DNA of 64,000 nucleotides from Tubulanus polymorphus (lineage: Eukaryota > Animalia > Nemertea). How positions within the stretch are numbered: the stretch's first letter is position 1; each line of letters opens with the position of its first letter. The translations under genes and the position numbers were made by a program. The stretch covers positions 6,534,231-6,598,230 of the forward strand of contig NC_134033.1 in assembly GCF_964204645.1 (NCBI RefSeq). Reading direction: 5' to 3'. Of this stretch, positions 14,341 to 63,624 are shown piece by piece. A model generated the notes under the pieces. The model searched no databases and had not been told where the DNA came from. It saw only the letters and a list, made by a program, of their open reading frames with translations.

Positions 14341-14544
14341 TGTAAATTTGAGAAATGATTTTTACATAACTGAAAACTAGAGATTCACGCGGTTTGAATG
14401 TTGCTGAAGTTGTCAAAATCCATCCATCGACAGATGAAATATGATACAATACACATCACGGATAGTTTTTAAAAAAGAGAAAAAAATGACCCAACAATAC
14501 GGGACAAAAGTACCCTAACAAAATGGCGGCTAGCATTTGTAAAA

Positions 14545-33784: not shown

Positions 33785-34743
33785 TTATTTGACTGAATTT
33801 CTACAGCGTATTTTCGTACAGAAATGTTCACGTATTTCTCGTCCCAGTAGAAGATATATGAACAAATTTACCACATAGTTACACACATGAAAGTGCGTGA
33901 AAATATAATATAGAAGTGTTCGCTGTTCCGGTGAAATTGGTAAAAATGTAGCAATAGTGGCTGGAAGTGTAAATATTGCAAATGCGAGTGAAACTGTTAC
34001 AAGCATTACAAGTATTGTTGTACGTTTCGATTTTGTAGTTTTCCGATCAGACGATACCATTCTCGAACTTCTGAATAACTGAACGATTATAACAGAATTT
34101 GATATAATGATCGAAGATAGAGGCAGAACGTAATCGTGGACGACAGAATGGTCAAATATGTTATTTTGTCGAATAATACATAATAACATCCAAAAAACTG
34201 TTCTGAAAAAAGTATCCTCAAAGCAGGCGTGAGATATAGAATCATTGCGTTCATTGCAGTTATCACCAATGTAGTCACTCTAGCGAATCTAGGTGTACAT
34301 ACCAAACGAAATGTGAAACCAGCGCGCAGAAGCCAGCGATGGAAGAGCACAACCAGCGCGCGTTCTAGATATATTGCTACTATAAACCAAGAACTATTGC
34401 AGCCAGCAAGTGCCGTCACGAATCCGTATATGTGAGAGCTGATGAGTGAATTAAATACAGGACCAGTGTTTAGATGAAAGAGAACAAACTGTAAAACAGG
34501 CATCAGCGAAAAATTCAGACAGTACACAAAATCACTGAGAGACAAGACGATCAAATATATAGCGTAAGATAACCCGCGGAATCTACGACTTATCATTATC
34601 AGGAAAGTAGCTGAATTCCCGAAGGCGCCAACCAAGAACACGATAGGTAGAATGACCAATGACAGCGTACGATACATTCCAAATCTGTTCACCAAGGACA
34701 TAAGAACGTACGTTCGGCCCATATCATTCTGAGTAGAGTTCAT
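33785..34743 (-). pseudogene. Intronless class A (rhodopsin-like) peptide GPCR with a frameshift in TM5
   Basis: GN (TM1), LSLSD (TM2), ERALVV (TM3), FTLP (TM6), NYVVNLFIY (TM7); two overlapping ORFs join near 34130-34140. Confidence 0.85.
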
Positions 34744-37701
34744 GATTCAACATAAATAAGTGTACAAACGCGCGGTGGGACTATTTCAATAGACTGATGC
34801 AAATAAGAGCTATGTGTTATTATTGAAGCTCACAATTTTACATTCGCATTAAATGAAAAATCAATTTTCTAAATATGACACAATTTCTCCATAGTTTGTG
34901 AAATTTAACTATACACTGTGAAATATATGAATGTTACTAAATTCAATATAGATATTCGCTGTACGAGAACAGATTGTTATGGTGAAACTTGCAGTACAAC
35001 GCATATCATAACAAGCTGGAAAATATTTGCGCATGATCAATTCGTTCTAAATAAAGTCAGAGCAATTTTACAATGAAGAACGCCTGCGATAAGTGAAGGA
35101 ATGATTGCCCACCCTAAAATTCCATCCTAAAATGTAAGCAATTCGATTCAAGGGTGGCAAAGAAAAGAATATTCTGGAACATGGTGCGGCTAAAGCTTAA
35201 TAGGTCTCCTCACAAGATTGACATCATTATGGCGTGCGTAATTAAGATATAGTTTTCTATGTCCCTGGTTTGAGTAAGCACTTGTCAAATGATTGCTCTA
35301 ATGTTCAGGTGAGATTTGATTGTGCTGTAGGCTTAAGAAGTTGATAGAAGTCTTAATATTACAAATGCGATTAAAACTGTTACAAGCTGTATTGCTGCTT
35401 TTGTTCTGTCAAATTATTGCATTTCAGCTAAAATAAGACTTAGCCACACTCGCTGCGCACCTGGAATAATACTATAAATAAGATATATTATATTTTTCTG
35501 CATATACACGAAACGATTATGCCGGCTGAAAACAACGAGGGTGAAAGGTTGGGGACTCGCCAGAGAGTTCGAACATGGCCAAAAATATACAAACATACAC
35601 CAACGCTCTCATAGAAAGTTGAGCACCAGTATTTTCCTATAACTATTACTGTTACAGTATATCTCCATATGACGTAGATGATCAGCACTTCAAGACCTGT
35701 CAGTAACACTCAAACTCTTCTTCCGTTACGAATGCATTTAGCTTTATTTCGTTCAGCAAACAAATACAGTTTTCGGCTAGCTGGTCTATCCCTGTCACGC
35801 AGGTTCCAAGGCTAGATCTCAAATCAATCTCGCGCCATCAAAGATTCCAAAATATTAATACAATATTATAGTCACTGTAAGTCACTGTACAGTTGGAAAC
35901 AACAACGATAACAAACCAAAATAGGCATTGTTATATAGTGTCAGCTCAGGGAGTTTGTTGCCAGTATGTCTGGATGATTTGAGACAATGTTTCTGAATAA
36001 ATAATTAACATTTGACACCCCGACAGTCTTAAACAGTGTAGTTTAATGTTTTTATAATAACCTGGTTGCGCATTTGTTTTTTTAAATCCTTCCATATTAT
36101 TAACGGAATATTGTCCGCAAAATTAAGTTTGCTATAAAAGGACCGATTGCTGCCCAATAAAACGCTCAAAGTATTTACAAACTCAACATAATAGAGCTGT
36201 GGCAGAGGGTGAAAAGACAAAGCTACGAAAACGTAACATACGTATGTATACGATAAGTGTATGCAATCAGCCGAAACACGAAATTCTAACAGAACCTCTA
36301 GCAATCCTCTCGCGATGTTTAAACCTAAGGCAAACTAGAATAGAACACAAGCTTCCTGGAACTCATCTTTCACTACTATGCTTCATTTTATATTCAAAAA
36401 ACAATTCATCAACCACAATTGGATTTTACTCTCTAAATTCGAACCCATCGTCCCATCTCATGTTCTATAATTTCAAACCAAATCGTCAATCCCAAATAAA
36501 TCCGGACTATCAATTTTTTTCCTCTTTCCCACATTTTTAATCTCTTATTTTCTATATTCTCTCACAATAGAAGAGTCTCCTTACAAAATCTATATCGGCG
36601 GTCAACAGCAAAACTGCAGGACTGAATGCTCTCGACCGAAACGCACAAACTCTTACAAACTCAACATAATGGAGCCGACCGAGGGTAAAAAGACGAATCC
36701 ATGAAAGGCTACGCATACATGCGTATTCAATGGGCCGAGAAATAAAGCTAACTAAAACCCCAAGCCTATATACCTATACCATCACGCAACAGACCTAGGG
36801 CAAACTAAAATAGAACTAGATTCCAAATCAACTTCCGAACTGATTCTCCACTCTCATCTTCTATGATCAAAACAACTGATCCATCACAAATAAATCTCGA
36901 CTGTATTTCTTATTTCATTTTCCTCATATCTTTTTTTCTCTTTTTTTGCTTATTCTCTTTTTATCTCCTATTCTCGAGTTCTCTTATCTTCTATTACTCA
37001 ACATTGAAAATCATCATTCTCCTTCAAAATTCAATCGTCGGTCTACTACCAAGTAAACCCACGACGATTGACCAAAACATCAGATTCAAGCCTCCGGTTT
37101 GCTAGTGAGCCAAACTCACGGCGTTTGACTAAAATGCCAGGCTTTAGCTTCTAGGTTTGCTGGTCAGGCAAACTCAACGACGGTACCCAGAACGCCAGGC
37201 TACATATACACATATCTCACAAGCCTACGTGGATCCACTACGAGAGTAAACTCACGACATTTGACCAAAACGTAACAGGCTTGGCCTCCGGTTTGCTGGT
37301 CAGGCAAACTCAGCGACGATACCCAGAGCGTCAGGCTCAAAAACTTAGAAAATTCGCCACAGACAATACACATATGCACACTCGGCCAAAGTGAAAGAGA
37401 CACGTCCTGCGACTTTGAAACCAAAGCCACACTGAATAACTTCCGCATACTCGCAGCGCCGCATGGTGAGAATAGATTAATGTCCGCATGAGACCGTTTT
37501 AGTTTTGTACCGGTATATTTTTCATCAATAATGAGGACTCTTCGCCACCAACTATGCCACTAGATGGCGTGCGTATCAGTGCGTCAACCCTGTCAAAATC
37601 TAGTTTATTTTCAATGAAATTCATCTAGATTTTTAGCCTCCATCATCAGAAATTAGGCAAATCACTCCTCTCGATAAACTCAGATGATCTTAAGGTTCGT
37701 A

Positions 37702-41660: not shown

Positions 41661-41959
41661 TGACAAGAAACGTGCGGTAGATTTCGGAAAGACGACTTAG
41701 AAAAACATGTCGGCTCTTTGAATGGGGCTCAATTTTCGATGTTTACGGCCCGACAGTGCTTTTGTAACGATGATTCGTGAAAAAACACGCGGAGTAATTG
41801 TAGATCTTAGTGAGCTGAACGATATCATACGGATTGTATCGACAACAGCGGCAAGGTAACAAAGCCTTTGTACTTTTAGTGAAACTATAGTGTGACATAA
41901 AATAGTAATAAATATAGCTGCATAGCAGCGATAACGGGTTTCTGCCTAATAAAGAAGTT

Positions 41960-42048
41960 AGTAATTGGAAGATGGCGTTTTCAGGCCAGAGGTCGTGCGG
42001 TCGAGACACCACTCATCACCACAAGTAATTTTTTTTCCTAATAAATGG
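41960..42048 (+). repeat. Left TIR (89 bp), includes the pPolB start codon
   Basis: Exact reverse complement of 58708-58796. Confidence 0.97.
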
Positions 42049-45000
42049 GGGAGAATGAACACCAGCCAGAAAACAATAATGTTAATAAAAATCAATATTA
42101 TTGCCAATATTGTAAAAAATACATCGATAAATCCCAAAAATCACGACATGAAAAAACGTCAAATCATATAAAAAATGTAATAGATTTTGAAACTCCAGAA
42201 AATTCCAATGAAAGAAAAGAACGATTAGAAAATATGAATGTGGATGAAATAAAATGTGAAGTTTGTAATGAATTTATAGTAAAAAGGAATTATAATAGAC
42301 ATCTCGAATCACAAAAACACCGCCAAAATTTGAGTAATAATGTTTTAGGAAAAGATTATTTTGATGATAAACCTCAACAAGTAAAAGAATCAACTTCAAA
42401 AACTAAATCCATTTCAAATAAACCTTACATGGAAAATGTTAGAAATTATATTGATTCACTAGAAATAAAAGATACAATTGAAATCTTAGAAACATTACAT
42501 AGTAAAATTGGTCCTGCAGCTATTATATTTAGATTCTTTAAAGGTACAACAATAGAAGATTATAGTAAATTTAATGAAATAATAGAAACAATACTAGATT
42601 TGATAACAGATGTTGAATATCCAAAAATTAGTATCTCTGGGAAAGTAAGTTTTATAAAGTCAGAAGAAAAAATGGATTATAATATTCAAACACACTCTGA
42701 AGAAATAATTTCAAAAACACAAATAAAAGAGAAGTTAGAAAAAATATTAAATGAATTTAAACGTCATATTGAAGAAAGATATTTTGAGGGTTCTGGCTTA
42801 ACATTGAATGAAATTATATATTTAGATTTAAATGTTTATAATACAAAAAGAAATAAAACATCAAAAAGTAATAAAATGTTTTAAAATGATTCAAACTTTA
42901 TAACAGAAAAAGATATGAAAGCATCAAGTTATATCAAATTACCATTTATAACAAAAGCAGTAATAAATATTCAAAATGAAGATAATAAATGTTTTCTATG
43001 GTCAATTATTAGTTGCTTACATCCAACAGAAGAACATGCTTATAGAATAACAGATTACCGGAAATATGAAACATTATATAAAATTGATCAATATCCAGTA
43101 ACTATAAAAATGATTCCTAAAATAGAAAAAGTTAATAATTTAAAAATAAATGTATTCGAATTAATGCAATTACCAAAGACAAAAGGTGAAAATATTAAAG
43201 ATTATACATTGGAAGCTTTATATTTAACAGAATATTATGATGATGAAAATGTTATAGATTTGTTATATTACAAAAAAGATGAAAATGAACATTATATGTG
43301 GTTAAAACAAATTGATTTATTCTTTAGAACAGAAAGTGATTTTAACAGCCATAAAATTTATCTATGTAGAAAATGTTTATCTAAATTTAGAACTGAGAAT
43401 ACATTATTAAAACATAAAGAATTATGTGATAATAAAGATTTTTGTAAATTAATAATGCCAACAGAAAAAGATTATAAATTGAAATTTACTAATCATAAAT
43501 TTAAAAATATTGTTCCATTTGTAATTTATGGGGATTTTGAATCGTTGAATAAAGAATTAACTGATCAAGATAGAAAAGAAATATATAACAAAAAGCAATT
43601 ATTAAAATCAATGGATAAAGGAAGTGAATTAAATGAAGACATAATACAAGACCCACCAATTATAAATACAATTAAAAAAGTTCATCAAAGAGCTGCTGCT
43701 TATGGAATTTACATAAAATCAAATTATCCCGAATTATATGAAAGTCAATATATTTCTTTTAGAGGTGAAAATGTAGTTAATAATTTTTGTGATAAAATTA
43801 TTGAATTAGAAAGTGATTTTGCAAAATTATTAAACAAAAATAAAAGAATAGTTATGACAAAAGAAGATGAAATTGATTTTAATTATGCAACTCATTGTTG
43901 TTACTGTGAAAAACGTTTTTATTCATTTGATAAAAAAGTTAGAGATCATAATCATTTAAATTCAAATTATCGTGGAGCTGCTCATGAAGATTGTAATTTA
44001 CAAGCCAAAAAAGTAAATTTTGTCCCCATTATATTTCACAATTTATCGGGGTATGATACCCATCTATTTATAAAACAGCTATGTTATAAAATAGAAGAAA
44101 TTAATAATGAAATAGAAATATTAAATTCTTCAAATAGATTAAAAGATAACAAAGTATCAATTTACAAATTTAAAATACTTGCTAAAACATCTGAAAATTA
44201 TATTTCATTCCAATTTGGGTGTTTGAGATTTTTAGATTCGTATAGATTTTTAAGTAGTTCATTAGAAAATTTATCAAAAAGTTTAGTTGATAATGATTTT
44301 CAAATATTAAAACAACATTATCAAAATAATAATGATTTTAAATTAATGAGATATAAAGGAGCAATTCCATATTCTTTCTATAAAAATCATGATGATTTTA
44401 ATGTAACAGAATTATAAAAAGATCAATTTTATGATAAATTAAAAGAGGAGTATGTGAAAGATGAAGTGTTTAATAGAACATTAAATATTTGGAACCATTT
44501 TAAGATGAAAAATCATGGTGAATTAGTTGATTTATATTTAAAATCAGATGTTATGATATTGGCTGACATATTTGAAAAATTTAGAGAAGTTAATTTGAAT
44601 CATTTTAATGTTGATCCTTGTTATTGCTACTCTAGTCCTGGTTTAACCTGGCAATGTGGTTTAAAATATACAAATGTAGAATTAGATTTATTAAAAGAAC
44701 CAGATATGGTTTTATTATTTGAAAAATCAATTAGAGGTGGAATTAGTGGTGTTATGGGAGATAGGTATTTTAAAGCAAATGATGAATATAAATTATTATA
44801 TATTGACGCCAATAATTTATATGGTTGGGCAATGATGCAACCTCAACCATATAAAAATTTTATATTAACAGAAGTTGAAAATGGCGATAAAACTGATTGG
44901 GAAAACGCAATTGCGAGTTTAAAAGATGAAGCGCCAATTGGTTATTTCTTTGTAGTTGATTTAGAATATCCTGAAAATATAAAGTTTAAAACAAGAAACT

Positions 45001-47118
45001 TACCTTATTGCCCAGAACATTTAACTGTAGATGATAGTTATTTAAGTGAATACCAGAAGAAAATAAAACCGAAAGATCATGTTTTTACTGAAAAATTAAT
45101 ACTTACTCAAAATAATAAATACAATTATATTGTTCATTATAGAATGTTAAAATTTTATCTAAAGCAAGGAATGAAATTAAAGAAAGTACATAGATATATT
45201 GAATTTAATCAATCGAAGTGGTTAGAAAAATATATAGATTTCAATACTCAACAGAGAACAATATCAAAAACAGATTTTGAGAAGGATTTTTTTAAATTGA
45301 TGAACAATAGTTTTTATGGTAAAACATGTGAAAATATTAGAAATAGAAATGATATTGAATTAGTGAATAATTATGAACGATTGAGACACCTACAATCAAG
45401 TCCTAGACATTTAGGAAATAAAAGATTTGAAGATTATTTAACAGCAGTAAAATTAAAAAGAACGTCAATGAAATTTAATAAACCAATATTTATAGGTTCA
45501 ACAGTTTTAGAAATATCAAAATTATTAATGTATGATTTTTATTACAATGTATTACAACCATTGTTTGGGGAAAAACATATAGAAATTCTATACTTCGATT
45601 CTGTAACAGCTGACACCCCAATATTATTAAAATAGAATAACCAAATATTAATTAGAAGAATTTCAGAAATAATTCCTAATCAAAATAAATCTTATATTTC
45701 ATATGGTGAAAAAGAACTAATACAAATAAATGGTTTAATAGATGTTTGGACAAGAAATGGATGGAAAAAATTAAAGAATATTATTAGACATAAAACAAAT
45801 AAGAAAATCTATAGAGTTAGAACTAAATTAGGATTTGTAGATGTTACTGAAGACCACAGTTTAATTAAACGAAATGGTGATGAAATAAAACCAACTGATA
45901 TAAAAATTGGAGATGAATTATTACATAAAAGATTTTTCCCAAGAATGAATCATATGTCATTTGATGAAATAATTGATAATATTTATAATATAGAACCCGA
46001 AACATTGGAAGAAAAAGAATATTTTATCAAAGGATTTTTCATGGGTGATGGTTCAGCAGGTGTGTATAAATATGTTTGGGGTAATAAATATTGTTGGTAT
46101 TTATGCAATCAAGACTTAAAATTATTAGAAAGAATTAAGAAATTCTGTGAAGAAGTTTATTCACATAAAACATTTAGAATCATGGATGTTATGAAATCAT
46201 CCGCGGTTTATAGAATACTTATAAATAATCCTAAAGATTTTGCTATAAAATATAATGATGAATTCTATATTCATGCAATAGTGAAAAGTAATACTTCAAC
46301 TAAAGAAAAAATAGTACCAGATTATATTTTAAATTCAGAATATAATCTTAGAAAATGGTTCTTCATTGGGTTCTACGCAGCCGATGGTACTAAAAAATTT
46401 ATAAAGGATAAAACGATAACCTTTGCACAGAAAGGAAAATGTGCAATAAGTGGGTTAAATGTGTTATGCAGTTCATTAGGATTTAATATGAATATAGAAT
46501 TAATTAAATCTAAACCAAATTGTTTTAATTTAAGGCATGTAGAAAAAGAATTAACAGAAGAAGTTAAAGATTTATTTGAAATATATAACCCAACTGACTA
46601 TGTTTATGATTTATCAACAGATGATGGAACATTCAATTCTGGGTTCCCATTAATCCAAAAAAATACTGACAGTTACATACTAAAAATCAAGACAAATGAT
46701 ATAACAAAAGACTTAAAAACATTGAAACATTATTTCGACTTTGGCAATTACCCCAAAGATCATGAATTGTTTAGTAATGATAATAAAAAGATTCCTGGGA
46801 AGTTTAAAGATGAATTAGGAGGTGATGAAATGATTGAATTTGTTGGGATAAGAAGTAAAATGTATAGTTATAGAACAAAAGATCATGAAGCTAAAAAGTT
46901 AAAGAATAACAAAACATGTGGTTGATAAACATATAGAATTTCAAGATTATATAAAGTGTTTATATAAATCAATTGTAATGAAACATAAAATGAATTGTTT
47001 AAGATCAGTAGATCACGAGATGTACATTAATGAAGTTGAAAAAACTAGTTTAAATCCATTTGATGATAAAAGGCATATTTTAGATGATGGTATAAAAACA
47101 TTACCTTATGGCCATTAA
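42045..47118 (+). pseudogene. polB: Protein-primed family B DNA polymerase (Zn fingers, vOTU-like, exonuclease with Endo VII-like insert, polymerase) with intein; 3 in-frame stops and 1 frameshift
   Basis: ORFs at 42045, 42915, 44454 and 45945 share one frame, split by single stops (42882, 44415, 45633); frameshift near 46903. Motifs: DNKCFLWS..HY, YGDFES, FHNLSGYD, RFLDS, YLKSDV, YIDANNLYG, KLMNNSFYGK, YFD|TDS, GKFKDE, SKMY. Confidence 0.95.
45600..46664 (+). mobile_element. Intein with LAGLIDADG homing endonuclease (355 codons) in pPolB motif C
   Basis: Splits YFD|TDS. Block A SVTADTPILL, block B VDVTEDHSL, LAGLIDADG helices FIKGFFMGDG and FFIGFYAADG, blocks F/G YVYDLST..GTF...LIQKN, then Thr at +1; one TAG at 45633. 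Confidence 0.95.
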
Positions 47119-48416
47119 AACATAAAATCAATATCATCAAACTCGAAATCACTATTGTCTTCTTCATTTTCATTTAATTGTTCAGGTTCTTCTTCCATTC
47201 CATTTTTCTCATTTAAATAAAGTTCTATCTTGTTCCACATTTCATCTCGCTCTCTTTGTTTCTTTTTGTTTGTTAATTCATCAAATGGAATTATAATATC
47301 TAGGTTTAAATAATTTACAATCTTATTTAAAAAGAATTCATAATTTATTGAATCTGTTATTCTATTTTCCAAATGATACATTAATATTTGTTTGAATATT
47401 TTTTTTATATTTTTCATATCTTCTTCTGTTAATTTAGGTTTTTCATAATAATCGTTAAATAATAAATATAAATACATTTTCTTTTCTTTTGTGTTAAATG
47501 TTGGTGGAATAATTGTTTTTATAATATCTTTTTTAGTTATTTCACCATTTTTATTTTCTATTATTTTCATTTTTTCAAGCCATTGCATATATTCTGGTGT
47601 ATGATCTTCTATAGAAAATATTTTAAAAATTTCATCAAGATAATTTAATTTTGGATCTATAAGAAAATTTCTAGTTTTTTCTTCATCCCATAAATTCTTT
47701 TGCCATCCACAATCAACACAAAATAACACAGTACCTTCTTGTCTTAAGGTCGCATAACTACATTGTGGACATTTTCGTTTATAATTTATTGGTAATAGAT
47801 CTTCATTAAGCTCTTGGTATTTTCTTACGTTTTCTTTATGTTTTATTGTTCTATTATGTAGATTTGAATTACTTGTTGTAATAATCAATTTACAATATTT
47901 ACAATAATATGTTTTTCTTGTTAATTCATTATATTGTTTTTCTAACTTTTCAACTGTTTCTTCATTATCTGGTAACGTTTTCTCATATTTTATTTTTTCT
48001 AATAAATTATTTTTTCTTTCATTGAATTCAGTTTCAAATTTATTAGAAATTTTATCTATATGTGCTTTACGAAATTGATGATTCTCCCAATCTTCTTTAT
48101 TATCAGGGATGTATTTCATTTGACAAGGCTCGCAGAAATGATTTTTTATTTTATCCTTATCATAAAATAAGGAAGGTCTTTTCCAAATAACTTCAGGTTC
48201 AACTTCAGCAGAATTACTATCAACATTAGCCATTGCGCCATTAATTCTACACTTCTCTGAATGTTTTTTAACATAATTTCTTGAGAATAATTGATTACAT
48301 TTTGGACAGTTTATTTTAGGGGGTTTATAATTTTCATTATGTTTTTTCATATGTCGAGCCTTATTACTTTTTCTTAGAAGTTCACCACAAATTTCACATG
48401 CTATCTTCTCTTCCAT
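47115..48416 (-). CDS. Zn-finger protein with C-terminal VLTF3 (poxvirus A2)-like late transcription factor domain
   Basis: Four N-terminal CxxC..H fingers; Zn ribbon CPQC-x13-CVDCG; C-terminal INYEFFLNKIVNYL...KKKQRERDEMWNKI resembles the VLTF3 family end. Recognised by eye only. Confidence 0.68.
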   Translation of the reverse strand: MEEKIACEICGELLRKSNKARHMKKHNENYKPPKINCPKCNQLFSRNYVKKHSEKCRINGAMANVDSNSAEVEPEVIWKRPSLFYDKDKIKNHFCEPCQMKYIPDNKEDWENHQFRKAHIDKISNKFETEFNERKNNLLEKIKYEKTLPDNEETVEKLEKQYNELTRKTYYCKYCKLIITTSNSNLHNRTIKHKENVRKYQELNEDLLPINYKRKCPQCSYATLRQEGTVLFCVDCGWQKNLWDEEKTRNFLIDPKLNYLDEIFKIFSIEDHTPEYMQWLEKMKIIENKNGEITKKDIIKTIIPPTFNTKEKKMYLYLLFNDYYEKPKLTEEDMKNIKKIFKQILMYHLENRITDSINYEFFLNKIVNYLNLDIIIPFDELTNKKKQRERDEMWNKIELYLNEKNGMEEEPEQLNENEEDNSDFEFDDIDFMF

Positions 48417-48484
48417 TTATTTAGGAAAAATTTTATTAAAATTAATTTTTAGTGATGAGTGTAATTTTTTTATGTTATAAATAA

Positions 48485-49242
48485 ATGGTGGAATTAAAAG
48501 AATATAGAATATATGTTGATTCTAGAAAACTTACAAATTATAAATCACATAATTTACTAGTACAATTAGATAGAGAATTTAAGAATTGTGTAGATTTAAA
48601 ATTAGTAAATATAAGTTTATGTAATTCTTTTTACAATGTATCGGATAAAACTCTTGAACATAGAGTCTTTTTAATTCATATTAGAAATATAAATGAATGG
48701 TTTCATCTATTTTTAAAACCAGGGTTATATAATTTAGAAACATTAGCCCAAGAAATTAATCGGAGAGCACGATTAAAACTTGGAAAAGATGATAAATTTT
48801 TAATTAAATTTAGTAAAAGTGATAGTTCTGATAAAATTAAAATAAAGTTAGATGATGAAAACAAACATGCATTTATGGTAAAAAAACCTATAGCTAAATT
48901 GCTAGGAATTGAACCAGATGTTGTTACAGGAAACGTAGACGGTAATTCAAATATAATACCTTTTACACACTTTTATATTTATTGCAATTTAATCGATCCT
49001 ACAAAAACATTTGAAGCTACTAAAGATAAAACTTGTAATTCTAGTATACTAAATATTTTACCAATAAAAATGTTAAACAATTTGGAACTCAAATAAATTA
49101 TAATTTAACAGAATGTGATTTTAAACCTTGCATTCCTAAATTTAATAATTTTAGATTAGAAATTAGAAATCATAATGGATACTTAATTGATTTAAATAAC
49201 TTTCCTGTGATATATGAATTAGTTATAAGATGTAAAGAGTAA
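48485..49242 (+). pseudogene. Minor capsid protein (penton-like), 1-nt frameshift near 49070
   Basis: IYVDSR start, FYIYCNLID, ILPI; shifted frame continues FRLEIRNHNGYLIDLNNFPVIYELVI to a stop at 49240-49242. Confidence 0.78.
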
Positions 49243-49258
49243 TTTTTTTATTATATAA

Positions 49259-49615
49259 ATAAATATAATTGTTGGACCGAGTATATGTTTTGGATTTGAT
49301 TTTAAACGTGAGAAAGAAATGAAATTTAACATGAATGATGTAATTACACATATAAAAAATGTTGTATTTTCTAATGAAACAACATTTGAGTATGAAACAA
49401 CAATAGATAAAGAAACTTTAAATGTAGAAAAGATTACTAATTTAATTAGAGAATCTTTAAGATTTTATGAATTAGATGAAGATTTTATAATCGATGATAT
49501 TAAAAAAATAATAATTGAAATATATACAAATGAAACTAGTAATGAAATAAATGTTGAAATAATCATAAATAAGATAACTAAATATTTTGATGATAGTAAT
49601 TTTTTTGATAAATAA
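49259..49615 (+). CDS. Small Polinton protein; probable original start mutated (TAAATG to TAAATA), downstream ATG at 49319
   Basis: Open frame from ATA at 49259 behind a T-run/TAAAT motif; C-terminus conserved in copy C. Confidence 0.6.
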   Translation: MNIIVGPSICFGFDFKREKEMKFNMNDVITHIKNVVFSNETTFEYETTIDKETLNVEKITNLIRESLRFYELDEDFIIDDIKKIIIEIYTNETSNEINVEIIINKITKYFDDSNFFDK

Positions 49616-49837
49616 ATGAGCGATAATAAGTGGATAATAACTGGATTATATAATGGCGCATTACTATCAGTTGGAACTGTTGGTTATTCAATGGTATTAA
49701 AAAAAGTATTCAAAATGGGAAGTGTTAATGTTGACAGATTTGATATCAATGATATTTTGAAATTAACATTAGCAGTTACTTTATCTAATTTAACTATTGA
49801 TTATTTGGAAAAACAAAAATATATTCCTCCCATATAA
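49616..49837 (+). CDS. 73-aa hydrophobic protein
   Basis: TAAATG start; two hydrophobic segments; conserved in copy C. Confidence 0.8.
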   Translation: MSDNKWIITGLYNGALLSVGTVGYSMVLKKVFKMGSVNVDRFDINDILKLTLAVTLSNLTIDYLEKQKYIPPI

Positions 49838-49861
49838 ATGCATAATTTTTTTGTTAAATAA

Positions 49862-50284
49862 ATGGCTTCTGCAATTATAACTATTATAGGATCAGCAATT
49901 GTTAACGCTTTAGCATTTACTGGTGGTGGTTATTTATTTAAACATATTGATAAAAATAGTTCATTAGGAGAACAAAGAAGACATAACTTAGCGTTAGAGA
50001 AATACAATAAAGCTGCAGAAGAATATAGAGAAAAGAGACAAAACTATATGGATTACATCAATAAAGAATTATATGATCAGAAGATTTCACATAGAGATTT
50101 TCAATCAGTTGATGATGCAATGAGTTTATATAACGCAGTAACCAATAAAGAAAAATTACATCTATACAAACCTAAATTATCAGATTATTATACCCCAAGT
50201 AAAGAACAACAGAAATATGAAATAATATGGATTTTAGGTGGAACTGTTATTGTTATATTTGTTGCTTATAAGTTTACTAATTAG
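49862..50284 (+). CDS. 140-aa protein with hydrophobic N- and C-termini
   Basis: TAAATG start; conserved in copy C. Confidence 0.82.
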   Translation: MASAIITIIGSAIVNALAFTGGGYLFKHIDKNSSLGEQRRHNLALEKYNKAAEEYREKRQNYMDYINKELYDQKISHRDFQSVDDAMSLYNAVTNKEKLHLYKPKLSDYYTPSKEQQKYEIIWILGGTVIVIFVAYKFTN

Positions 50285-50303
50285 TAATTTTTAATCTAAA
50301 TAA

Positions 50304-50738
50304 ATGGAAGATAAAGTTGATAGTATTGATATTATTCCTCATGATATAAATAAAACTAAATTAAAAACATATTTAGAAAAACAAATATTAGAATTTGAAA
50401 GTGACTTAAAGATAAAAAAGAAAAAATATTTAAAAAGTAAAATTATATATTATCTTATTATTAGTGGTTCGGTTACAATTAGTTCTGTAATAACATTTCT
50501 AGCAATATTCAGTCCATTAACACCTTTAGCTATATCAATTGGTGTATTAGGATTAAGTTCAAGTGTTTTAACCGGTATAAGTTCAAAATTAAATATAAAA
50601 AGTAATAAAGAAAAAATCAAAACTAATATAAAAGAAATTAATAAATTAAAGAACACACTAGATTATATAATAAGTTTAAATGGTCATATAACAGTTGAAG
50701 AACAAGATAAATTATTAAAAGAATTAATAAATTATTAA
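50304..50738 (+). CDS. 144-aa protein with two predicted TM helices flanked by coiled coils
   Basis: TAAATG start; hydrophobic stretch IIYYLIISG...LTGISS. Confidence 0.78.
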   Translation: MEDKVDSIDIIPHDINKTKLKTYLEKQILEFESDLKIKKKKYLKSKIIYYLIISGSVTISSVITFLAIFSPLTPLAISIGVLGLSSSVLTGISSKLNIKSNKEKIKTNIKEINKLKNTLDYIISLNGHITVEEQDKLLKELINY

Positions 50739-50754
50739 TTTTTTAATTATATAA

Positions 50755-52170
50755 ATGGTAGATAGTTTTCCAAAAGCTTTCCAATATAATAAATCAATTA
50801 AATATAATATTCCAGCAATAGATTTTAATAAAGATATTACATATAGAAATGAAGTTTTAGATTCATTAACTAATTTAGAAATTTATGTTACTGAAACTAA
50901 TAATTTTAATGCAAAGATGGAAAATATATTTCATGTATATTTAATTAATTTTAAAAAATTGAAAGATGAAAAACAATGGTTATTAAAATCTAATATGAAG
51001 TATTGGCAGAACCAATTAAATTTTGCTGTTTATTGTGCAACAACAGGATGTGGAATTAGTTGGAATGATCATTTGAATAATTCTAAATATAAACTAATTC
51101 AAAGTTTATTTAGATTTCATACATACTTTCAAATCAGAATAATATTAAATGAATTAGAGTGCGCTTTACCAGGATCTAGGTATTTTAAAGAATTAGATAA
51201 TAATATTAATTTATCAAAGTTTTATAAAATTTGTAATGAATTTAATATAGATATAAATAATTCTGATTTTAGAATAAAAATTGGAACAATAAGATCACTT
51301 CCTTGCCCTAGAAAGATTGCAGAATATTGTGCACTTCCCATACCATCTAATAGTTTTTATAATATCTATAATAAAAAATTAGGTTATGGTAAAATAGAAA
51401 CAAAGGATTTAGAAACATTAAATTTCAATAAATTACCGAAATTTTATGATAATTTAAAACAAGAAAACAATAATGGTTGGGTTTATTTTATTTTAGAAAA
51501 TAGTGAAGGTTTTACAAAATCAGGTATAGAAAGAATAAATCAATCTATTAGAACTTATTTAATATGTATTCTAGGATCACAAGTTGAAACAAGATCCCCG
51601 ATAATTGGAAATTTGAATACATCATTCGATACACAAAAACAGTTTAAAGTTTTATTTGAAGATTCAATTCATAATGATAAAAATAGATCGATTCCAGAAA
51701 ACGTTATAAGATATCAAAATTATTTAGATAAATCTCATGTAAGACTAAATTATTGTATAGGCCCTAATCTATTAATTATTTCTAATGATTTAGTATTAAA
51801 GATGGGAAATATAATTGGTTATAATAATCTAATTAAAACTGCAACAATAAATAATTCATTTGGGTTAAATGATATAAATAAAAAGATTATTACTGCTCCA
51901 AAATTAATAGAAGGTGAAAAAAATAAAAAACACATTCAATCAACAGAAACTAAAACTAAGAATATTAAATTGGTTAATGATTCCAAAATAAAAGATTACA
52001 ATACATCAGAAAATGGTGCCGTACGGCACCCACACGGTGATAATAGAACTGATATTATTCAACATGATATAATTAAACAATATGATGATAATAAATCCCA
52101 TGAAAATACTAAATTAGCTATAACTTGTATAGGAATTGTAATCGGAGGAATATTATATTTTAAATTTTAA
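50755..52170 (+). CDS. 471-aa Polinton protein with C-terminal membrane anchor, function unknown
   Basis: Intact ORF, TAAATG start, C-terminal LAITCIGIVIGGILYF; conserved in copy C. Confidence 0.85.
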   Translation: MVDSFPKAFQYNKSIKYNIPAIDFNKDITYRNEVLDSLTNLEIYVTETNNFNAKMENIFHVYLINFKKLKDEKQWLLKSNMKYWQNQLNFAVYCATTGCGISWNDHLNNSKYKLIQSLFRFHTYFQIRIILNELECALPGSRYFKELDNNINLSKFYKICNEFNIDINNSDFRIKIGTIRSLPCPRKIAEYCALPIPSNSFYNIYNKKLGYGKIETKDLETLNFNKLPKFYDNLKQENNNGWVYFILENSEGFTKSGIERINQSIRTYLICILGSQVETRSPIIGNLNTSFDTQKQFKVLFEDSIHNDKNRSIPENVIRYQNYLDKSHVRLNYCIGPNLLIISNDLVLKMGNIIGYNNLIKTATINNSFGLNDINKKIITAPKLIEGEKNKKHIQSTETKTKNIKLVNDSKIKDYNTSENGAVRHPHGDNRTDIIQHDIIKQYDDNKSHENTKLAITCIGIVIGGILYFKF

Positions 52171-52186
52171 TTTTTTTATTATGTAA

Positions 52187-53647
52187 ATGGATGTAGAAGG
52201 TGGAGAAGATTATGAAATGGGAGAAATGGGAAATGATAATGAAGGATATATTGATGATGATTATAATGATGCAGAAACTAATATTGATAATGATGATGAA
52301 TCAGCATATAATTCTAATTTAGCAGATAGTGGTTCTAAAGGTCAATCAACAGATGAATTTGATAGAAGAACTAGATCGAGAATAAATCCTGAAAATGAAA
52401 ATCCAGATTTAGTAAAACAAAATTTAGAATATAATGAATATATTTATAATTTCAAACCTATATTTGAAAAATCTGGATATAATATCAATGCTAGAGGCGC
52501 CAGACTTTTAGTACAAGAATTAAAATCTTTAGATGGTGAATATTATTATCATTTGAAAGATGATTATTATATTGATATCTCTTATAAAAAACAAAACAAA
52601 ATATTAGCAGAATCAACTTTGCTTAAGTTAGACCTATCTAGAATTAAAAGAATAAGAAATAGTAATGAACCAGAAGATGTAACACAAGAAGAAATTATTA
52701 AAAATGAAAGAGTATTTAAACAAAGAATTAATGAATTATTTGAAACAATCGATAATAATTTAGAACCAGAAACAAGTTCTCAACAGAATATAACTTCCAA
52801 AACTAGTAAACTTAAATCAAATAAAGTTCCAATTGAAAAACTTTTACCGAATGGGTTACTTGATGCAACAGATCAAGAATTAGAAGATTTAGATATATTT
52901 TCTGATAAAGCAATTAGAGAAATTATTAGTATAAGACTTGCATCTGATAAAATTGCGCATGATAAAAGTATAAGAGATTTTAAGATTAGAACTTTAGAAA
53001 AAGAATTAACTGATAAAAATAAAGAAATAGAACAATTAAAATTAGATAGAGATAATAAAGTAATTGAAGAAATTGAATTTAAAAAAAGAAATGCATATTT
53101 AGAAAAAGAAATTGATGATTTAGAATATAACATAGAATTACAAAAAGAAGAAATTAAATCATTATTTAAATCATATGATTATAATATTGATAGATTAAAA
53201 GATGTTTTTAAAAGATATCTAATAAAACCAGATTCTAGAATATCATTAAAAGATAGAATAAAATTGTTATTTAAATTAGAAGGAATAACAATTCTTTCAA
53301 TTCTAACAGGTGTAACTATGTTATTTACAACAATAGGTTTAGCTATATCAAATGCTTTGAAATCTACTCCTACTCCCAATAAACCAGATAAACCCCCGAA
53401 TGATAATAATTCTATACAAGATAAAGTTAAAGATGGTTTAAAGAAATTAGCAAAATATTTATGGGAACTATCAAAGAAATCTGCTGCAGCACTACCAGGA
53501 GTTATTGCATCAATTGTTGGTTTTGTTTTAAAATCTGCAGGAAACATTATTAACTTTGCTGCTGAACATATTATTTTATTTTTAATTACAGTTGTAAGTG
53601 CTATTATTTTTGGGTTAGTAAATATGATATCAAAAAATATCAAGTAA
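52187..53647 (+). CDS. 486-aa acidic/coiled-coil protein with C-terminal hydrophobic helices
   Basis: Intact ORF, TAAATG start; C-terminal third conserved in copy C. Confidence 0.85.
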   Translation: MDVEGGEDYEMGEMGNDNEGYIDDDYNDAETNIDNDDESAYNSNLADSGSKGQSTDEFDRRTRSRINPENENPDLVKQNLEYNEYIYNFKPIFEKSGYNINARGARLLVQELKSLDGEYYYHLKDDYYIDISYKKQNKILAESTLLKLDLSRIKRIRNSNEPEDVTQEEIIKNERVFKQRINELFETIDNNLEPETSSQQNITSKTSKLKSNKVPIEKLLPNGLLDATDQELEDLDIFSDKAIREIISIRLASDKIAHDKSIRDFKIRTLEKELTDKNKEIEQLKLDRDNKVIEEIEFKKRNAYLEKEIDDLEYNIELQKEEIKSLFKSYDYNIDRLKDVFKRYLIKPDSRISLKDRIKLLFKLEGITILSILTGVTMLFTTIGLAISNALKSTPTPNKPDKPPNDNNSIQDKVKDGLKKLAKYLWELSKKSAAALPGVIASIVGFVLKSAGNIINFAAEHIILFLITVVSAIIFGLVNMISKNIK

Positions 53648-53688
53648 ACCATGATTAAAAATAAATAATTAATTTTTTTGTTAAATAA

Positions 53689-54936
53689 ATGAGTGGGAGT
53701 TATATAAGTCCTTCTAAGATTTCTAGAATATCTAATGCTATTAAAGCAGAAAGATTACATCATATAATTACTCATAACCCTTCAAATATTAATCCCGATG
53801 AAACTTTATACGTTAGAATTCCGAGATTAACACAAAATACTTTTTATGTTCCAAATAGTATTTATTTATCAGCTGATATAAAAGTAATCGGTAATAATAA
53901 TAATTATGTTGTTGATAATGTTGGAAGATATTTGATTAAAAAGTTAACAATAAAGATTGGTCCAGAAACAGTTTTCTCATTAGATGATTATAATTTATTT
54001 ATGCATTATAAAGATTTATGGTTAACTAAAGAAAATAGAAATAATATGATATTTCAAGGAATCCAATCAGAAAACCAAAATAAATTAAGATCAGAAGCTA
54101 ATAGCGCAATATTAACAAATGATGTAGATAAATTGATAAAAAGTATATATGGAAGCAAATATAAAATTCCATTAGACTTTGAATTGATAAATAATAATGC
54201 ACCTTTATATAAATACGCAATTCAAGAAGATATTATATTTGAGATAACATTTGCTCCTGTAAATGAAATTGTAATATCTAGCGTTAATAAAGATATGAGT
54301 TATAAATTATCGAATATATGTTTAGAATATGATACAGTAACTGATGAAAATATTGCTAGAACAATTCAAACTCAATACAATCAAGGATTTTCATTATTAT
54401 ATGATTATATTGATAAATTTAAAACTGTAACTATTAATGCAAATGATGAAATAATTAATGAGAATATTAACTTCCCTAGAAGATCTATTAAAGGTATATT
54501 AATATTTCTTACCATTGGAACGTATACTAATGGCGCAATAAATGTTGATAATTATTATAATCCTGAAATAACAAAAGTAGAAATAACTATCGAAGGTATA
54601 GCGAATAAAATATTTTGTCAAGGAATGAGAATGATAGATCAATGGGTAGAAATTAAAAAACATTTTATGAATGAAAAAGTAAAATCATTTGAAAATTGTA
54701 ACATTAATCAAATTGATTATTATACCGGTAATAAATATGCATTATGGTTAGATTTTAGAACAACTGAAGATAATTCATTACATGGTTCTGGGAAAAAATT
54801 ACAAAATACAAAAGATGGGATCCAATTATTTATGACAAAGAAAAAGGGAATCAAAAATTTTAAAATGCATATTTATATTATATCTGACGCACAATTAAAT
54901 ATTGTAAATTCACAATTAGATATTATTCAATATTAG
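53689..54936 (+). CDS. Major capsid protein (putative double jelly-roll)
   Basis: 415-aa intact ORF beside integrase and ATPase; beta-strand pattern (LYVRIPRL, YKIPLDF, IIFEITFAP, LSNICLEYD, LWLDFR); size and position fit a Polinton MCP. Confidence 0.8.
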   Translation: MSGSYISPSKISRISNAIKAERLHHIITHNPSNINPDETLYVRIPRLTQNTFYVPNSIYLSADIKVIGNNNNYVVDNVGRYLIKKLTIKIGPETVFSLDDYNLFMHYKDLWLTKENRNNMIFQGIQSENQNKLRSEANSAILTNDVDKLIKSIYGSKYKIPLDFELINNNAPLYKYAIQEDIIFEITFAPVNEIVISSVNKDMSYKLSNICLEYDTVTDENIARTIQTQYNQGFSLLYDYIDKFKTVTINANDEIINENINFPRRSIKGILIFLTIGTYTNGAINVDNYYNPEITKVEITIEGIANKIFCQGMRMIDQWVEIKKHFMNEKVKSFENCNINQIDYYTGNKYALWLDFRTTEDNSLHGSGKKLQNTKDGIQLFMTKKKGIKNFKMHIYIISDAQLNIVNSQLDIIQY

Positions 54937-54966
54937 AAATATAAAGTTAAAATTAAGGATATATAA

Positions 54967-56094
54967 ATGAGTGGTAAAAAAACTCCTAATACTAAAGAAC
55001 AATATTTAAGAAATTTATATTACAACCCTGAGAGTTCGGTTGCTTATTCTTCTACTAAAAATATATGGCGTAAAGTAAAACAAGATAAATTAGATAAGAT
55101 AATCTCACAAAATTTAGTTAAATATAAAGATATAAATGAATTTATGTTAGAACAACCAACATATACAACACATAAAAAAATTGTTAGAAAATATAAAACT
55201 CGTAAAACTATGGTAAGTTATGTAGATCAACAGTGGCAAGGAGATTTAATTGATATGAAAAATGTTAAGAAAGATAATGATGATTATTGGTGGTTATTGA
55301 ATATAATTGATATTTTTAGTCGTTATGTATGGAGTTTCCCACTTTATAGAAAAGATGCTGCACAAACATCACATGTTTTAAGAAAATTTCTTTCGGATGA
55401 TAAACTAAAACCAGAAAAAATACAATTTGATGATGGAAAAGAGTTTGATAATTCACTTGTTCATGAACTCTTAGATAATCATAATATTAAATATTTTTCA
55501 ACAAAATCAGATAAAAAAGCAGCAGTTGTTGAACGATTTAATAGAACATTAAGAACAAGAATGTGGAAATATTTTACAGCAAATAATACTTTTAAATGGA
55601 TTGTTGTTTTACCAAAATTGATAGAAGGATATAATAATTCTTATCATTCTTCTATTGGAATGAAACCTATTGATGCTAGAAAACCTGAAAATGCTGAAAT
55701 TGTTTGGAATAATTTATATGGAGCATTTCTTGTAGATGATTTTGGTGAACCTAAATTTAAAGTTGGTCAAAATGTTAGAATTTCTAAGTATAAAAAGATA
55801 TTTGATAAAGGATACGATCGAAATTTTACTAGAGAAATATATAAAATAAAAAAGGTAATAACAACAAAACCATATGTCTATAAATTAGAAGATTTAGATG
55901 GTGAAGAAGTTGATGGCTACTTTTATGAAGAAGAATTAAGTTTAACTACTGAAAATCTAAAACAAGAATATAAAATTGAAAAAGTATTAAAAACAAAAAC
56001 TGTTAAAAGAAAAAAATATTCTTTAGTAAAATGGGTTGGATGGCCAGATAAATTCAATGAATGGATATTATCAAGTAAAATTAAAAATATATAA
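54967..56094 (+). CDS. Retroviral-like (rve) DDE integrase with C-terminal chromodomain
   Basis: WQGDLIDM, IDIFSRY, IQFDDGKEF, VERFNRT, YNNSYHSSIGMKP; chromodomain YKIEKVL...LVKWVGWPDKFNEWI. Confidence 0.95.
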   Translation: MSGKKTPNTKEQYLRNLYYNPESSVAYSSTKNIWRKVKQDKLDKIISQNLVKYKDINEFMLEQPTYTTHKKIVRKYKTRKTMVSYVDQQWQGDLIDMKNVKKDNDDYWWLLNIIDIFSRYVWSFPLYRKDAAQTSHVLRKFLSDDKLKPEKIQFDDGKEFDNSLVHELLDNHNIKYFSTKSDKKAAVVERFNRTLRTRMWKYFTANNTFKWIVVLPKLIEGYNNSYHSSIGMKPIDARKPENAEIVWNNLYGAFLVDDFGEPKFKVGQNVRISKYKKIFDKGYDRNFTREIYKIKKVITTKPYVYKLEDLDGEEVDGYFYEEELSLTTENLKQEYKIEKVLKTKTVKRKKYSLVKWVGWPDKFNEWILSSKIKNI

Positions 56095-56703
56095 ATGAAT
56101 AAGGAATTATTCATATTTGAGCCTCATAATATGTTAATTTCTGGTGTAACAAATTGTGGAAAAACTTATTTTATATTACATTTATTAGAAACTGTTTATG
56201 AAAACTATTTTGATAATATAGTATTATTTTGTCCAACATATGAATTTAATCAAACTTATGATAAAAATATTACTAGGAATAATAAATTTATTATATTAGA
56301 TCCTAAAACAGTAAAAGAAAATTTAGATAATTGTATAAAAATAGCAATTGATATTTATAAAGGATCAAATACATTATTTATCATAGATGATTGTGCTAAT
56401 CTACATGATTCAAAAGTTAGAGAAAGTGAGTTATGTTATTTAGCTTTTTCTGGTAGACATTTTGGGATAACAACTTGGGTTTTAAATCAAAAATATAATT
56501 CAATTGTTAAAGATTTTAGAGAAAACATTAGATTTCTAGTTTTATTCTACAATAAAGATAGAAAATCGATGAAAAATGCACTTGAGGAAAATGATATTAT
56601 TCCACATGATTTACATAATGAATATATGGATAAGTTGAAAAATATTAAAAGATCAAAATTACTATTTAGATTACAACACCCATTTAAATATGAATTTATT
56701 TAA
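56095..56703 (+). CDS. A32/FtsK-type DNA packaging ATPase
   Basis: Walker A GVTNCGKT, Walker B FIIDD, GRH motif, Q sensor (VLNQ), FREN. Confidence 0.93.
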   Translation: MNKELFIFEPHNMLISGVTNCGKTYFILHLLETVYENYFDNIVLFCPTYEFNQTYDKNITRNNKFIILDPKTVKENLDNCIKIAIDIYKGSNTLFIIDDCANLHDSKVRESELCYLAFSGRHFGITTWVLNQKYNSIVKDFRENIRFLVLFYNKDRKSMKNALEENDIIPHDLHNEYMDKLKNIKRSKLLFRLQHPFKYEFI

Positions 56704-57062
56704 ATTCAATTAGTTTGTTAATCTAGTTGAATTCTAGTTATTGGTAGTTGTAACAAAAATCAAATAGATTTAACAATATTTTAACTAGCTTGTTAATCTA
56801 TTTTAATTCTAGTTGAATTCTAGTTGTTAGTAGTTGAAACAAAAATCAACTAGATTTAACAAGAAATAAACAAAAACAACAATATTTCAACTAGCTTGTT
56901 AATCTAGTTACATTCTAGTTACATTCTAATTGAATTCTAGTTGTTAGTAGTTGAAACAAAAATCAACTAGATTTAACAAGAAATAAACAAAAACAACAAT
57001 ATTTCAACTAACTTGTTAATCTAGTTGAATTCTAGTTACATTATAGTTAAATTCTAGTTGCA
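56704..57062. repeat. Non-coding repeat block inside the Polinton (CTAGTT/AACTAG motifs, 117-bp duplication)
   Basis: Duplicated unit at 56818 and 56935 plus a degenerate upstream copy. Confidence 0.8.
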
Positions 57063-57093
57063 ACATCACACAATTAATTTTTTTGTTATATAA

Positions 57094-57680
57094 ATGGTAG
57101 GTGAAAAGAAAATAAAATCTAAAAATGGTGATGTTCCAATTGAAAAAACTTTAGATGATTTAGGAATAACAGAAACAAAATTAATTCCAGATGATGGTGC
57201 TTTAAATAATGTTACAACAAATAATAATTATGAATATTATCTTTATTGCAAACATCAATTAGAAATATTAATAGCATCTGGAAAATGTAAAAATTTTGTT
57301 AGTAAAAATTTAACTTATAATGAATTAGACACAATGAAATCAGATGAAATTATTAGATTATTTAAGATTTATGAAGCCGCGAGAACAGCTAGAATTAATG
57401 ACGCGATATCAGAAAATGTAGTAAAAGGTTATAGTAAATTATGTAATTATATACTACCAATTGAAGATGAAAATAGATTATATTCCGATTTAAAAAATGA
57501 TTATTTATGACTGAATTAAATAAATGGATTGGATATTTATCATTTCAATTAGGTGGATTTATGACATTATTATCAACTGGAGTTATAACATTTTCAAATA
57601 TTGAAAGTAAAAATATTTCTATAATAAATGAGCGAGGTGAAAGAAGTGAAGAAAAAACCGAGAACTCAGAAACAAATTGA
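57094..57680 (+). pseudogene. Polinton protein with hydrophobic C-terminal region, frameshift near 57505
   Basis: ORF 57094-57510 appears to continue in a shifted frame as TELNKWIGYLSFQLGGFMTLLSTGVITFSNI to TGA at 57678-57680. Confidence 0.62.
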
Positions 57681-57981
57681 ATGGTCTCGGCAATTAGGAA
57701 TTAAATCACAAGAATATAAAAAAGCTGTAAAAGAAAAAATAAGTAATAAAAATGTTAATAAAAATGGTGAAAATATTGTTATTTCTACTCCTTCTGATAG
57801 TAGAATATTTGATAAATATTTATATTTTACAGTTGGATTTGTAATTGTATTCATTTTGATTGGGTGTAATTGGTATAAGAAATCAAATAAAATTCATGAT
57901 ATTAGTAATTCTGAACCAACTGCTATCAAAAATGAAAGTACTTCTGAAATTCCAAAATTGACAATAAAAAAAATGGATTAA
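57628..57981 (+). CDS. 117-aa basic protein with a single TM helix
   Basis: TAAATG start; Lys-rich N-terminus; YLYFTVGFVIVFILIGC segment. Confidence 0.75.
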   Translation: MSEVKEVKKKPRTQKQIEWSRQLGIKSQEYKKAVKEKISNKNVNKNGENIVISTPSDSRIFDKYLYFTVGFVIVFILIGCNWYKKSNKIHDISNSEPTAIKNESTSEIPKLTIKKMD

Positions 57982-58018
57982 TATTTTAGAAAAAAAGCAA
58001 AAAAAATAATTGAATATC

Positions 58019-58711
58019 TCACTGCGGAGCAATTAAATTGTCTAGATAAGTCATTTCGGATTCCTCAACGTATCGTTCATTATTTGGATTATTGTTCCAT
58101 TGATCAATAAATTTCTTTGCCTTTGTTAACTGTTCTGAATATAACTGTAAATTTAGTTTATTAGATTTAATTATATTTTCTTTCTTTTCTAAAGGCCTTA
58201 AATTTCTCCAGTTCCAGATTTTCTTCTTATCATATTCATCATTCATATCAAATTTAGAAATCGGCAACACGTGATCAATATGAAAGTATTCACCATAATT
58301 ATCTATATTCATTTTATCATCGAATTGATATATTATCCATGATTTTAAGAATTCATCTGAACAACCCAATAGATTAGATAGTGTTTCTGAATGTGTTTCT
58401 TTGTTGAATAATTGTGTTAATCTAGACCGTAAACATTGTTTCAATCTAAAATTAAGATCTGTTTGATATCTTTCTCTCATATATTTTGTCATATAATCAT
58501 TATAAGATTCTCTATTATCTTCTCGGTATTGTTTGGTATATAGTTTAAAACAAGTTTTACAGCAATTTTGAAAACCATCTTTGCTAATCTTACGCTTACT
58601 AAATTCTGTAAATGATTTATCTAATTCACATTTAGAACACTTCTTGTAGTATATGTTTATAACACCAATGTTATTTGTAATATTAACAATTTGTGGTTGT
58701 TCTGATTCCAT
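58019..58711 (-). CDS. HNH endonuclease with N-terminal CxxC...CxxC Zn ribbon
   Basis: CSKC...CKTC; HIDHVLP...NLRPL...N..KSNK; start codon lies inside the right TIR. Confidence 0.85.
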   Translation of the reverse strand: MESEQPQIVNITNNIGVINIYYKKCSKCELDKSFTEFSKRKISKDGFQNCCKTCFKLYTKQYREDNRESYNDYMTKYMRERYQTDLNFRLKQCLRSRLTQLFNKETHSETLSNLLGCSDEFLKSWIIYQFDDKMNIDNYGEYFHIDHVLPISKFDMNDEYDKKKIWNWRNLRPLEKKENIIKSNKLNLQLYSEQLTKAKKFIDQWNNNPNNERYVEESEMTYLDNLIAPQ

Positions 58712-58796
58712 TTATTAGGAAAAAAAATTACTTGTGGTGATGAGTGGTGTCTCGACCGCACGACCTCTGGCCTGAAAACGCCATCTTCCAATTACT
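58708..58796 (-). repeat. Right TIR (89 bp), includes the HNH gene start codon
   Basis: Exact reverse complement of 41960-42048. Confidence 0.97.
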
Positions 58797-58877
58797 GAAG
58801 TTTCCAGTACCTAGGCGCAATTTTGAGGCGGTCCCTCGAGGTCCCCATTGTTGCGATAATTTGCGCTCATTTTTAAA

Positions 58878-63075: not shown

Positions 63076-63624
63076 AAAAAAGAGCGAAAGGTTTCAGCGA
63101 ACTCTAACTCTTTTGAAAAATCATTAAAAATTCATAGATATGTTCACGAATTAAATGATAAATTATATAATTCAAATTAAGAGACTGTTAAATTGGTTGA
63201 AAATGTATAGAATATTGTATAAATTAAAGTTCATTAAACAAGGGGTTCTATGTATTAATGGTAATAATGCGTATTAAATACATATCATGCTTTATTTCTG
63301 AAATTGAAGTCTCAGAAGTATTCAATTTTTTGATTATGATATTTTAATTCTTTACATTTAACAAGAATAATACTAACTTATTCAAGGTAAAGTTTTTTCT
63401 AGTATTTTCTTGTCAAATGTAAATAAATTTAGTGAAACAAGAATTGAATCAAAATCATTAAAAAAACAATAAGTTTCTTTAATTATACTAACTTATACAA
63501 GTTAATGTTTTTTCTTATTGAAACTATTCAAAATATTATGTAATCCAGTGAGCAATTAGAAACAATAACTAGTCTTATTTTAAAGAATTATATCATATTT
63601 TAGTGCTAAGTAAAGAATGTGATA

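Follow-up and report, generated by a model that had tools for sequence, protein, structure and literature searches.

An intein with a LAGLIDADG endonuclease interrupts the catalytic motif of the DNA polymerase gene in an animal-integrated Polinton

Inteins have been stated to be absent from metazoan genomes (PMC5784728; PMC8529194), and the viral polymerase inteins on record are assigned only to large DNA virus families and unclassified viruses (PMC5784728). The window analysed here, a 64,000-nucleotide stretch of contig NC_134033.1 of the nemertean Tubulanus polymorphus, contains a Polinton/Maverick whose gene for a protein-primed DNA polymerase (pPolB; 42045..47118, + strand) is interrupted by an intein-like insert, and the locus raises the question of whether this is a true intein, whether it belongs to animal DNA, where it came from and whether it moves. 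We consider it probable that an endonuclease-bearing intein lies in the D-T-D motif of an animal-integrated Polinton pPolB, that this copy is broken, that its intact relatives are predicted to splice and likely home, and that the family likely goes back to one gain from a giant-virus-type PolB.

The insert (45600-46664, + strand) comprises 1065 bp, or 355 codons, placed in frame between ...ILYFD upstream and TDSYIL... downstream; in translation, its first residue is Ser and its last two are Lys-Asn. A first-pass annotation had described an in-frame insertion with Ser1, a TEDH block, two LAGLIDADG motifs, a KN end and Thr at +1, and translation confirms each of these elements, with TEDH at intein residues 83-86, GFFMGDG at 145-151 and GFYAADG at 257-263. 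The residue set of a class 1 intein is present (Ser1, the TxxH of block B, the Asp of block F, the terminal Asn and Thr+1, with Lys as the penultimate residue), as are the features of a LAGLIDADG endonuclease, that is, two motifs with the acidic residues D150 and D262, the block D Lys K237, and fold matches to I-DmoI. S1, H64, T83, H86, D150, K237, D262, D337 and N355 are all present and conserved, His64 in 69 of 73 aligned relatives, and residue 353 is atypical; neither the window copy nor any of the 10 other pPolB inteins has lost a catalytic residue. Profile searches gave matches above the cut-off for TIGR01445 (intein_Nterm; E 6.2e-8) and Pfam LAGLIDADG_3 (E 6.7e-7), and a match to Pfam Intein_splicing (E 2.2e-6, 28 bits) below its curated cut-off of 35.8. 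A structure model built from 73 aligned sequences reached a pLDDT of 93.4 (33 from the single sequence) and has a Hint fold. Its top PDB matches were the endonuclease-bearing archaeal inteins TliVMA, PhoVMA, PI-PkoII and PI-PfuI (E 1e-11 to 1e-16), followed by PI-SceI and I-DmoI, and the top named viral fold matches were the PolBs of a phycodnavirus, Pandoravirus and Marseillevirus.

The insertion point comes after motif C's first Asp (xxD|TD), at the pol-c site (position III) that is used by the Mimivirus PolB intein, as YGD|TDS, and shared with archaeal family B polymerases (PMC549080), in agreement with the site first proposed. Excision had been expected to restore YFDTDS, and a natural intein-free polymerase, P0219, does carry an unbroken YFDTDSYILK; this empty allele, the closest among the matches listed in a search with the upstream extein, is 72% identical to the window pPolB over the 394 residues that precede the site, with 86% identity for the 80 that follow it, and it fixes the junctions of the intein. 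The segment 45600-46664 is confirmed as a true pol-c intein in a Polinton pPolB. Its domain matches, fold and conserved residues define it as a cysteine-less (Ser1/Thr+1), class-1-type intein with a LAGLIDADG homing endonuclease, broken by an in-frame TAG at codon 12 (45633..45635, + strand; read as X). One detail of the first description did not hold: Lys in place of the usual penultimate His had been taken as a departure, but among 101 inteins parsed from 216 proteins, in which the +1 residue is partly set by the parsing pattern, the end is KN in 44 and HN in 37, and KN was rejected as a special feature because it is ordinary for the family.

Polintons are 15-20 kb in size and are flanked by 6-bp target-site duplications. 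The element in the window is a whole Polinton/Maverick of 16,837 bp (41960..58796, + strand) with ends AG...CT and a GC content of 0.236, against 0.39 in the left flank; its 89-bp terminal inverted repeats (41960..42048, + strand; 58708..58796, - strand) are 100% complementary and are bordered by a 6-bp duplication, GAAGTT (41954..41959 and 58797..58802, both + strand). Besides pPolB, it encodes a retroviral-type integrase with a chromodomain (54967..56094, + strand; Pfam rve E 1.7e-10, Chromo E 2.3e-4) and an A32-like packaging ATPase (56095..56703, + strand; Pfam Pox_A32 E 8e-13), and in these genes, its size, its repeats and its duplication it is a Polinton/Maverick. A likely double jelly-roll major capsid protein, which we give as a lead only, is encoded at 53689..54936 (+ strand); it had no Pfam or PHROG match, and although it resembles members of virus clusters in the Atlas at 0.97-0.98, some of these clusters being labelled Capsid_N (24%) or DJR-like (10%), such resemblance is of low recognition value. 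A candidate gene with a frame break near 49,093 (48485..49240, + strand) is presumably a minor capsid gene, and a free-standing endonuclease VII/HNH-like gene lies at the right end of the element (58019..58711, - strand; phrog_1035 E 1.9e-18). An AT-rich motif like AATTTTTTT..TAAATAAATG stands ahead of most start codons of the Polinton (42024-57118; repeat families D3, D6, D14, D16 and D17) and recalls the poxvirus-like TAAATG late starts. Non-coding tandem repeats with 117-bp and 11-bp units occupy 56711-57060 within the element, and long satellite-like arrays are found in the host flank (14490-18839 and 63537-63969).

That the host of the element is an animal follows from its flanks, which contain three collagen Gly-X-Y exons and a rhodopsin-family (7tm_1) receptor gene in two frames (26314-28767, + strand, and 33785-34746, - strand, respectively; Pfam Collagen E 5.6e-6 for the one exon scanned), together with reverse-transcriptase fragments. 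The element is far more AT-rich than these flanks, as would be expected of an assembly chimera or of contaminating virus DNA, yet such an origin is hardly credible. The terminal repeats are perfect and accompanied by the 6-bp duplication (chance about 3e-4), the GC content of the intein (0.254) equals that of the extein (0.251), the gene is decaying by stops, and independent carriers exist elsewhere (see below). The explanation was rejected on the evidence of an uninterrupted copy of the host repeat nearby (~60797-60884, - strand), with a single GAAGTT, which matches the end of the left flank at 13 of 14 bases and the right flank at 92% of 79 bases. The Polinton family is represented once more in the window by a decayed copy at 5773-11601 (- strand; 76-89% nucleotide identity), which speaks against a chimera as well; no pPolB match was found in this copy, which therefore supplies no empty allele.

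The polymerase gene, whose relative P0099 matches Pfam DNA_pol_B_2 (E 5e-17), is interrupted by stops at 42882-42884, 44415-44417 and 45633-45635 and by a frame break near 46,905, so that neither polymerase nor intein is made by the window copy. The TAG at 45633 had been read as decay after integration: the stop is real, and with two further stops upstream of the intein and the frame break it is one of four lesions in pPolB, but these lesions may be either older or younger than the integration. Four of the five lesions found in the element lie in pPolB, which makes up 32% of its coding length (p ~0.04; some lesions elsewhere were possibly missed), and the terminal repeats are identical; faintly, this hints that the polymerase may already have been dead before the window copy integrated.

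An open frame through both exteins is found in other carriers. Searches with the intein gave 48 matches among 2,544 candidates of similar length and 331 among 4,680 longer ones, of which 120 were listed. The best relatives are open-frame pPolBs with an intein at the same site, P0099, P0100 and P0102, with 64%, 50% and 47% identity to the window intein, followed by P0107 and P0108 (42%) and P0068 (40%). Thus, the intein-bearing pPolB is not a one-off, and open-frame carriers occur in several lineages. Among the 150 representatives listed in the search with the 394-residue upstream extein, 140 were unbroken, 10 lacked the motif and none had an intein, clustering at 50% being able to hide carriers. 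An extein tree was built from 86 of the 153 usable rows, namely the 14 carriers together with the 72 best rows lacking an intein, P0102 and short rows being left out. In it the 14 carriers are interleaved with six empty alleles in one 20-row clade (SH-aLRT 99), which implies at least five changes; apart from P0102, carriers are limited to this small part of the pPolB tree. Alignment-based scans gave no pPolB carrier: among their 161 loci, an intein could be parsed in 115, always at xxGD|TDS, the best match being an RNA-primed PolB reference for 105 and absent for 10. Single-protein scans gave one weak match in one case and none in two others. The same intein family was also seen in a Chloropicon Pol delta (P0213), a DHFR-thymidylate synthase (P0121) and a topoisomerase II with several inteins (P0104). 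Some Polinton pPolB fragments (P0229, about 62% identical to the window, and P0422-P0424) come from contigs of 0.8-1.2 kb and are recorded under Bartonella; they are likely host DNA in those assemblies.

As to its origin, the intein had been proposed to have moved from the RNA-primed PolB of a co-infecting large DNA virus. When 63 selected inteins were placed in a careful tree, the pPolB inteins, 11 of 11, grouped as a single clade (100/100) nested among inteins of mostly RNA-primed, giant-virus-type PolBs; sequences were gathered by likeness to the query, so the sample is biased. A quick tree of 84 rows joined the pPolB inteins to a group of 13 with a PLIxKN end (SH-aLRT 95), a sister placement that the careful tree did not recover as resolved. 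This nearest subgroup holds the giant-virus MAG contigs L002, L003, L005, L007 and L019, as well as three phage-like PolBs (P0110, P0111 and P0113). An intein relative is encoded in 514 viral stretches, the best 80 of which reach 44% identity, and the top viral loci (viral_contigs L002-L007) are giant-virus MAG contigs with identities up to 44%. Since the pPolB inteins form one clade and are at most about 46% identical to inteins outside pPolB, the jump appears to be old and was probably single; a recent transfer was rejected because of this low identity and of the equal GC content of intein and extein. We infer that one old gain from a giant-virus-type PolB into a Polinton pPolB is likely. 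The proposed kind of donor remains likely, the nearest relatives being RNA-primed and mostly giant-virus-type PolBs, but an old, probably single jump followed by spread and loss among Polintons is no record of a co-infection in this animal. The jump could have taken place in a protist; PLVs (polinton-like viruses) were detected inside the occlusion bodies that entomopoxviruses form in insects (PMC11296320), a report that makes contact between viruses and Polintons in animal cells possible too.

A donor of another kind, either a phage or a nuclear Pol delta, or even a transfer in the opposite direction, with the giant-virus subgroup having received its intein from Polintons, is in our view unlikely. 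Related inteins are carried by P0110, P0111, P0113 and the Chloropicon Pol delta, and the careful tree leaves the sister of the pPolB clade open. However, giant-virus-type polymerases make up most relatives both within and outside the nearest subgroup, only two of 50,697 GenBank phage records matched, at 27% and 36%, the Pol delta intein is distant in the trees, and the confinement of carriers to P0102 and one small section of the pPolB phylogeny does not favour Polintons as the source. A different alternative starts from one old gain, after which the intein was only inherited vertically or lost exactly; its endonuclease would have ceased to home, and the altered empty alleles described below would have arisen by recombination with other Polinton families. 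We judge it rather improbable, but part of the evidence agrees with it. Among pPolB1-like carriers the deep branching of the intein tree agrees with that of the extein tree, which would also fit one gain with losses and little long-range homing. In the P0103 cluster (121 members; among the 15 listed, three carriers, one empty and 11 uninformative), the empty P0389 differs from a carrier at two of 400 residues upstream and none of 169 downstream, so altered targets are not general. Moreover, at the protein level co-conversion and resistance cannot be told apart. Against vertical inheritance alone, all 11 pPolB inteins, over a divergence of 40-64%, have retained the catalytic residues of the endonuclease, sequence differences concentrate exactly at the insertion site, and the same intein resides in the distant polymerase P0102.

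The last two points are those that suggest homing. P0102, which presumably has a VSR-like motif, has an extein that barely aligns with those of other carriers (at best E 1.5e-4 and 28% over 196 residues, with E >0.1 in three of four comparisons), yet its intein is 47% identical to that of the window, a contrast suggestive of a jump from one polymerase type to another, distant one; in the careful tree it is nested among the pPolB inteins (97/93), a position that the AU test does not require (p 0.317). Of the 136 members of the P0100 cluster, on contigs from 57 kb to 1.0 Mb, 15 were listed, and among these seven are carriers, six are empty and two are fragments. Their polymerases are 96-100% identical. 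The four empty alleles compared with carriers show 93-100% identity beyond 50 residues upstream of the site, but 88-92% over the last 50 upstream and 82-84% over the first 50 downstream. Between the carrier P0370 and the empty P0381, four of five differences in the 1041-residue N-extein fall within seven residues of the site, and eight of 11 in the C-extein fall within its first 44 residues. Among the members listed, all seven carriers share HYMD|TDSF, as in related lineages, whereas the six empty alleles (P0375, P0377, P0378, P0379, P0381 and P0382) have three other forms of motif C, YTDCDS, YFDTDA and YGDTDA, in near-identical polymerases. This pattern is likely a footprint of homing at the protein level, and the altered empty sites would fit co-conversion or the survival of cut-resistant targets. 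The many copies and long contigs suggest that the P0100 and P0103 relatives are integrated in genomes.

For intact members of the family, class 1 intein chemistry, taken together with what is described for the cysteine-less subgroup (PMC10189870), predicts that Ser1 would undergo an N-to-O acyl shift aided by Thr83 and His86, and probably by His64, that Thr+1 would then attack, and that cyclisation of Asn355, aided by Asp337, would re-form the D-T-D of motif C. Under the LAGLIDADG homing model, the endonuclease would cut empty pPolB alleles and repair would copy the intein in, presumably between integrated copies or co-replicating elements. The intein would persist because the polymerase stays active only when the loss is exact; its patchy distribution would result from repeated gain and loss, and cutting would select for empty alleles with an altered target. 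On balance we lean slightly towards the wider reading that a giant-virus-derived, endonuclease-armed intein family resides in animal germline Polintons, splices in animal cells, homes from copy to copy and into far-removed kinds of polymerase, and selects for escape variants of the motif, the best conserved of the polymerase. It would then act as a naturally occurring homing drive within an endogenous virus of an animal.

The intein shares the xxD|TDS site and the Hint and LAGLIDADG anatomy with the pol-c inteins of giant-virus and archaeal PolBs, and the metagenomic giant-virus-type relatives share Ser1, TEDH, the terminal Asn and Thr+1, some also a GFPLIxKN end; it differs from the giant-virus and archaeal inteins in its host, a polymerase that is protein-primed and belongs to an integrating element within animal DNA. 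A nuclease domain inside a Polinton polymerase has a parallel in the HNH and VSR insertions described in pPolB2 (PMC10748475), but here a complete splicing domain and a LAGLIDADG endonuclease are found, in motif C. Those insertions have been suggested to stem from intein invasions (PMC11071308); the word intein is absent from the main text of PMC10748475. Ser1 and Thr+1 recall the cysteine-less Ser1/Ser(Thr)+1 inteins with a motif NX histidine (PMC10189870), and His64 lies close to the position of His68 in PolB16, which suggests from position its equivalence to the NX histidine, whereas the window intein is contiguous and endonuclease-bearing rather than split. The Hint fold is also that of animal Hedgehog/Hint domains, which are described as belonging to the host's own genes and as not ligating a pair of exteins (PMC5784728), unlike the window intein with its two splice junctions, endonuclease and natural empty alleles. 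Other homing endonucleases are discussed in PMC12220804 and 10.64898/2026.10.13.758929. In the full-text literature searched (main texts, with few subscription papers), no intein in a Polinton or in any pPolB was reported.

The locus thus presents a known intein allele whose class of host is new and lies within animal DNA: a complete intein, although in the gene of an endogenous virus rather than in a host gene. It lends direct support to the suggestion that inteins have invaded Polinton polymerases (PMC11071308), and it ties giant viruses to Polintons through a marker that moves by DNA repair. The pPolB intein family may yield new cysteine-less inteins and meganucleases, and with its intein-bearing and empty alleles both homing and the recombination of Polinton copies with one another can be tested directly. 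Polinton families with open intein-bearing copies would require protein splicing for their replication.
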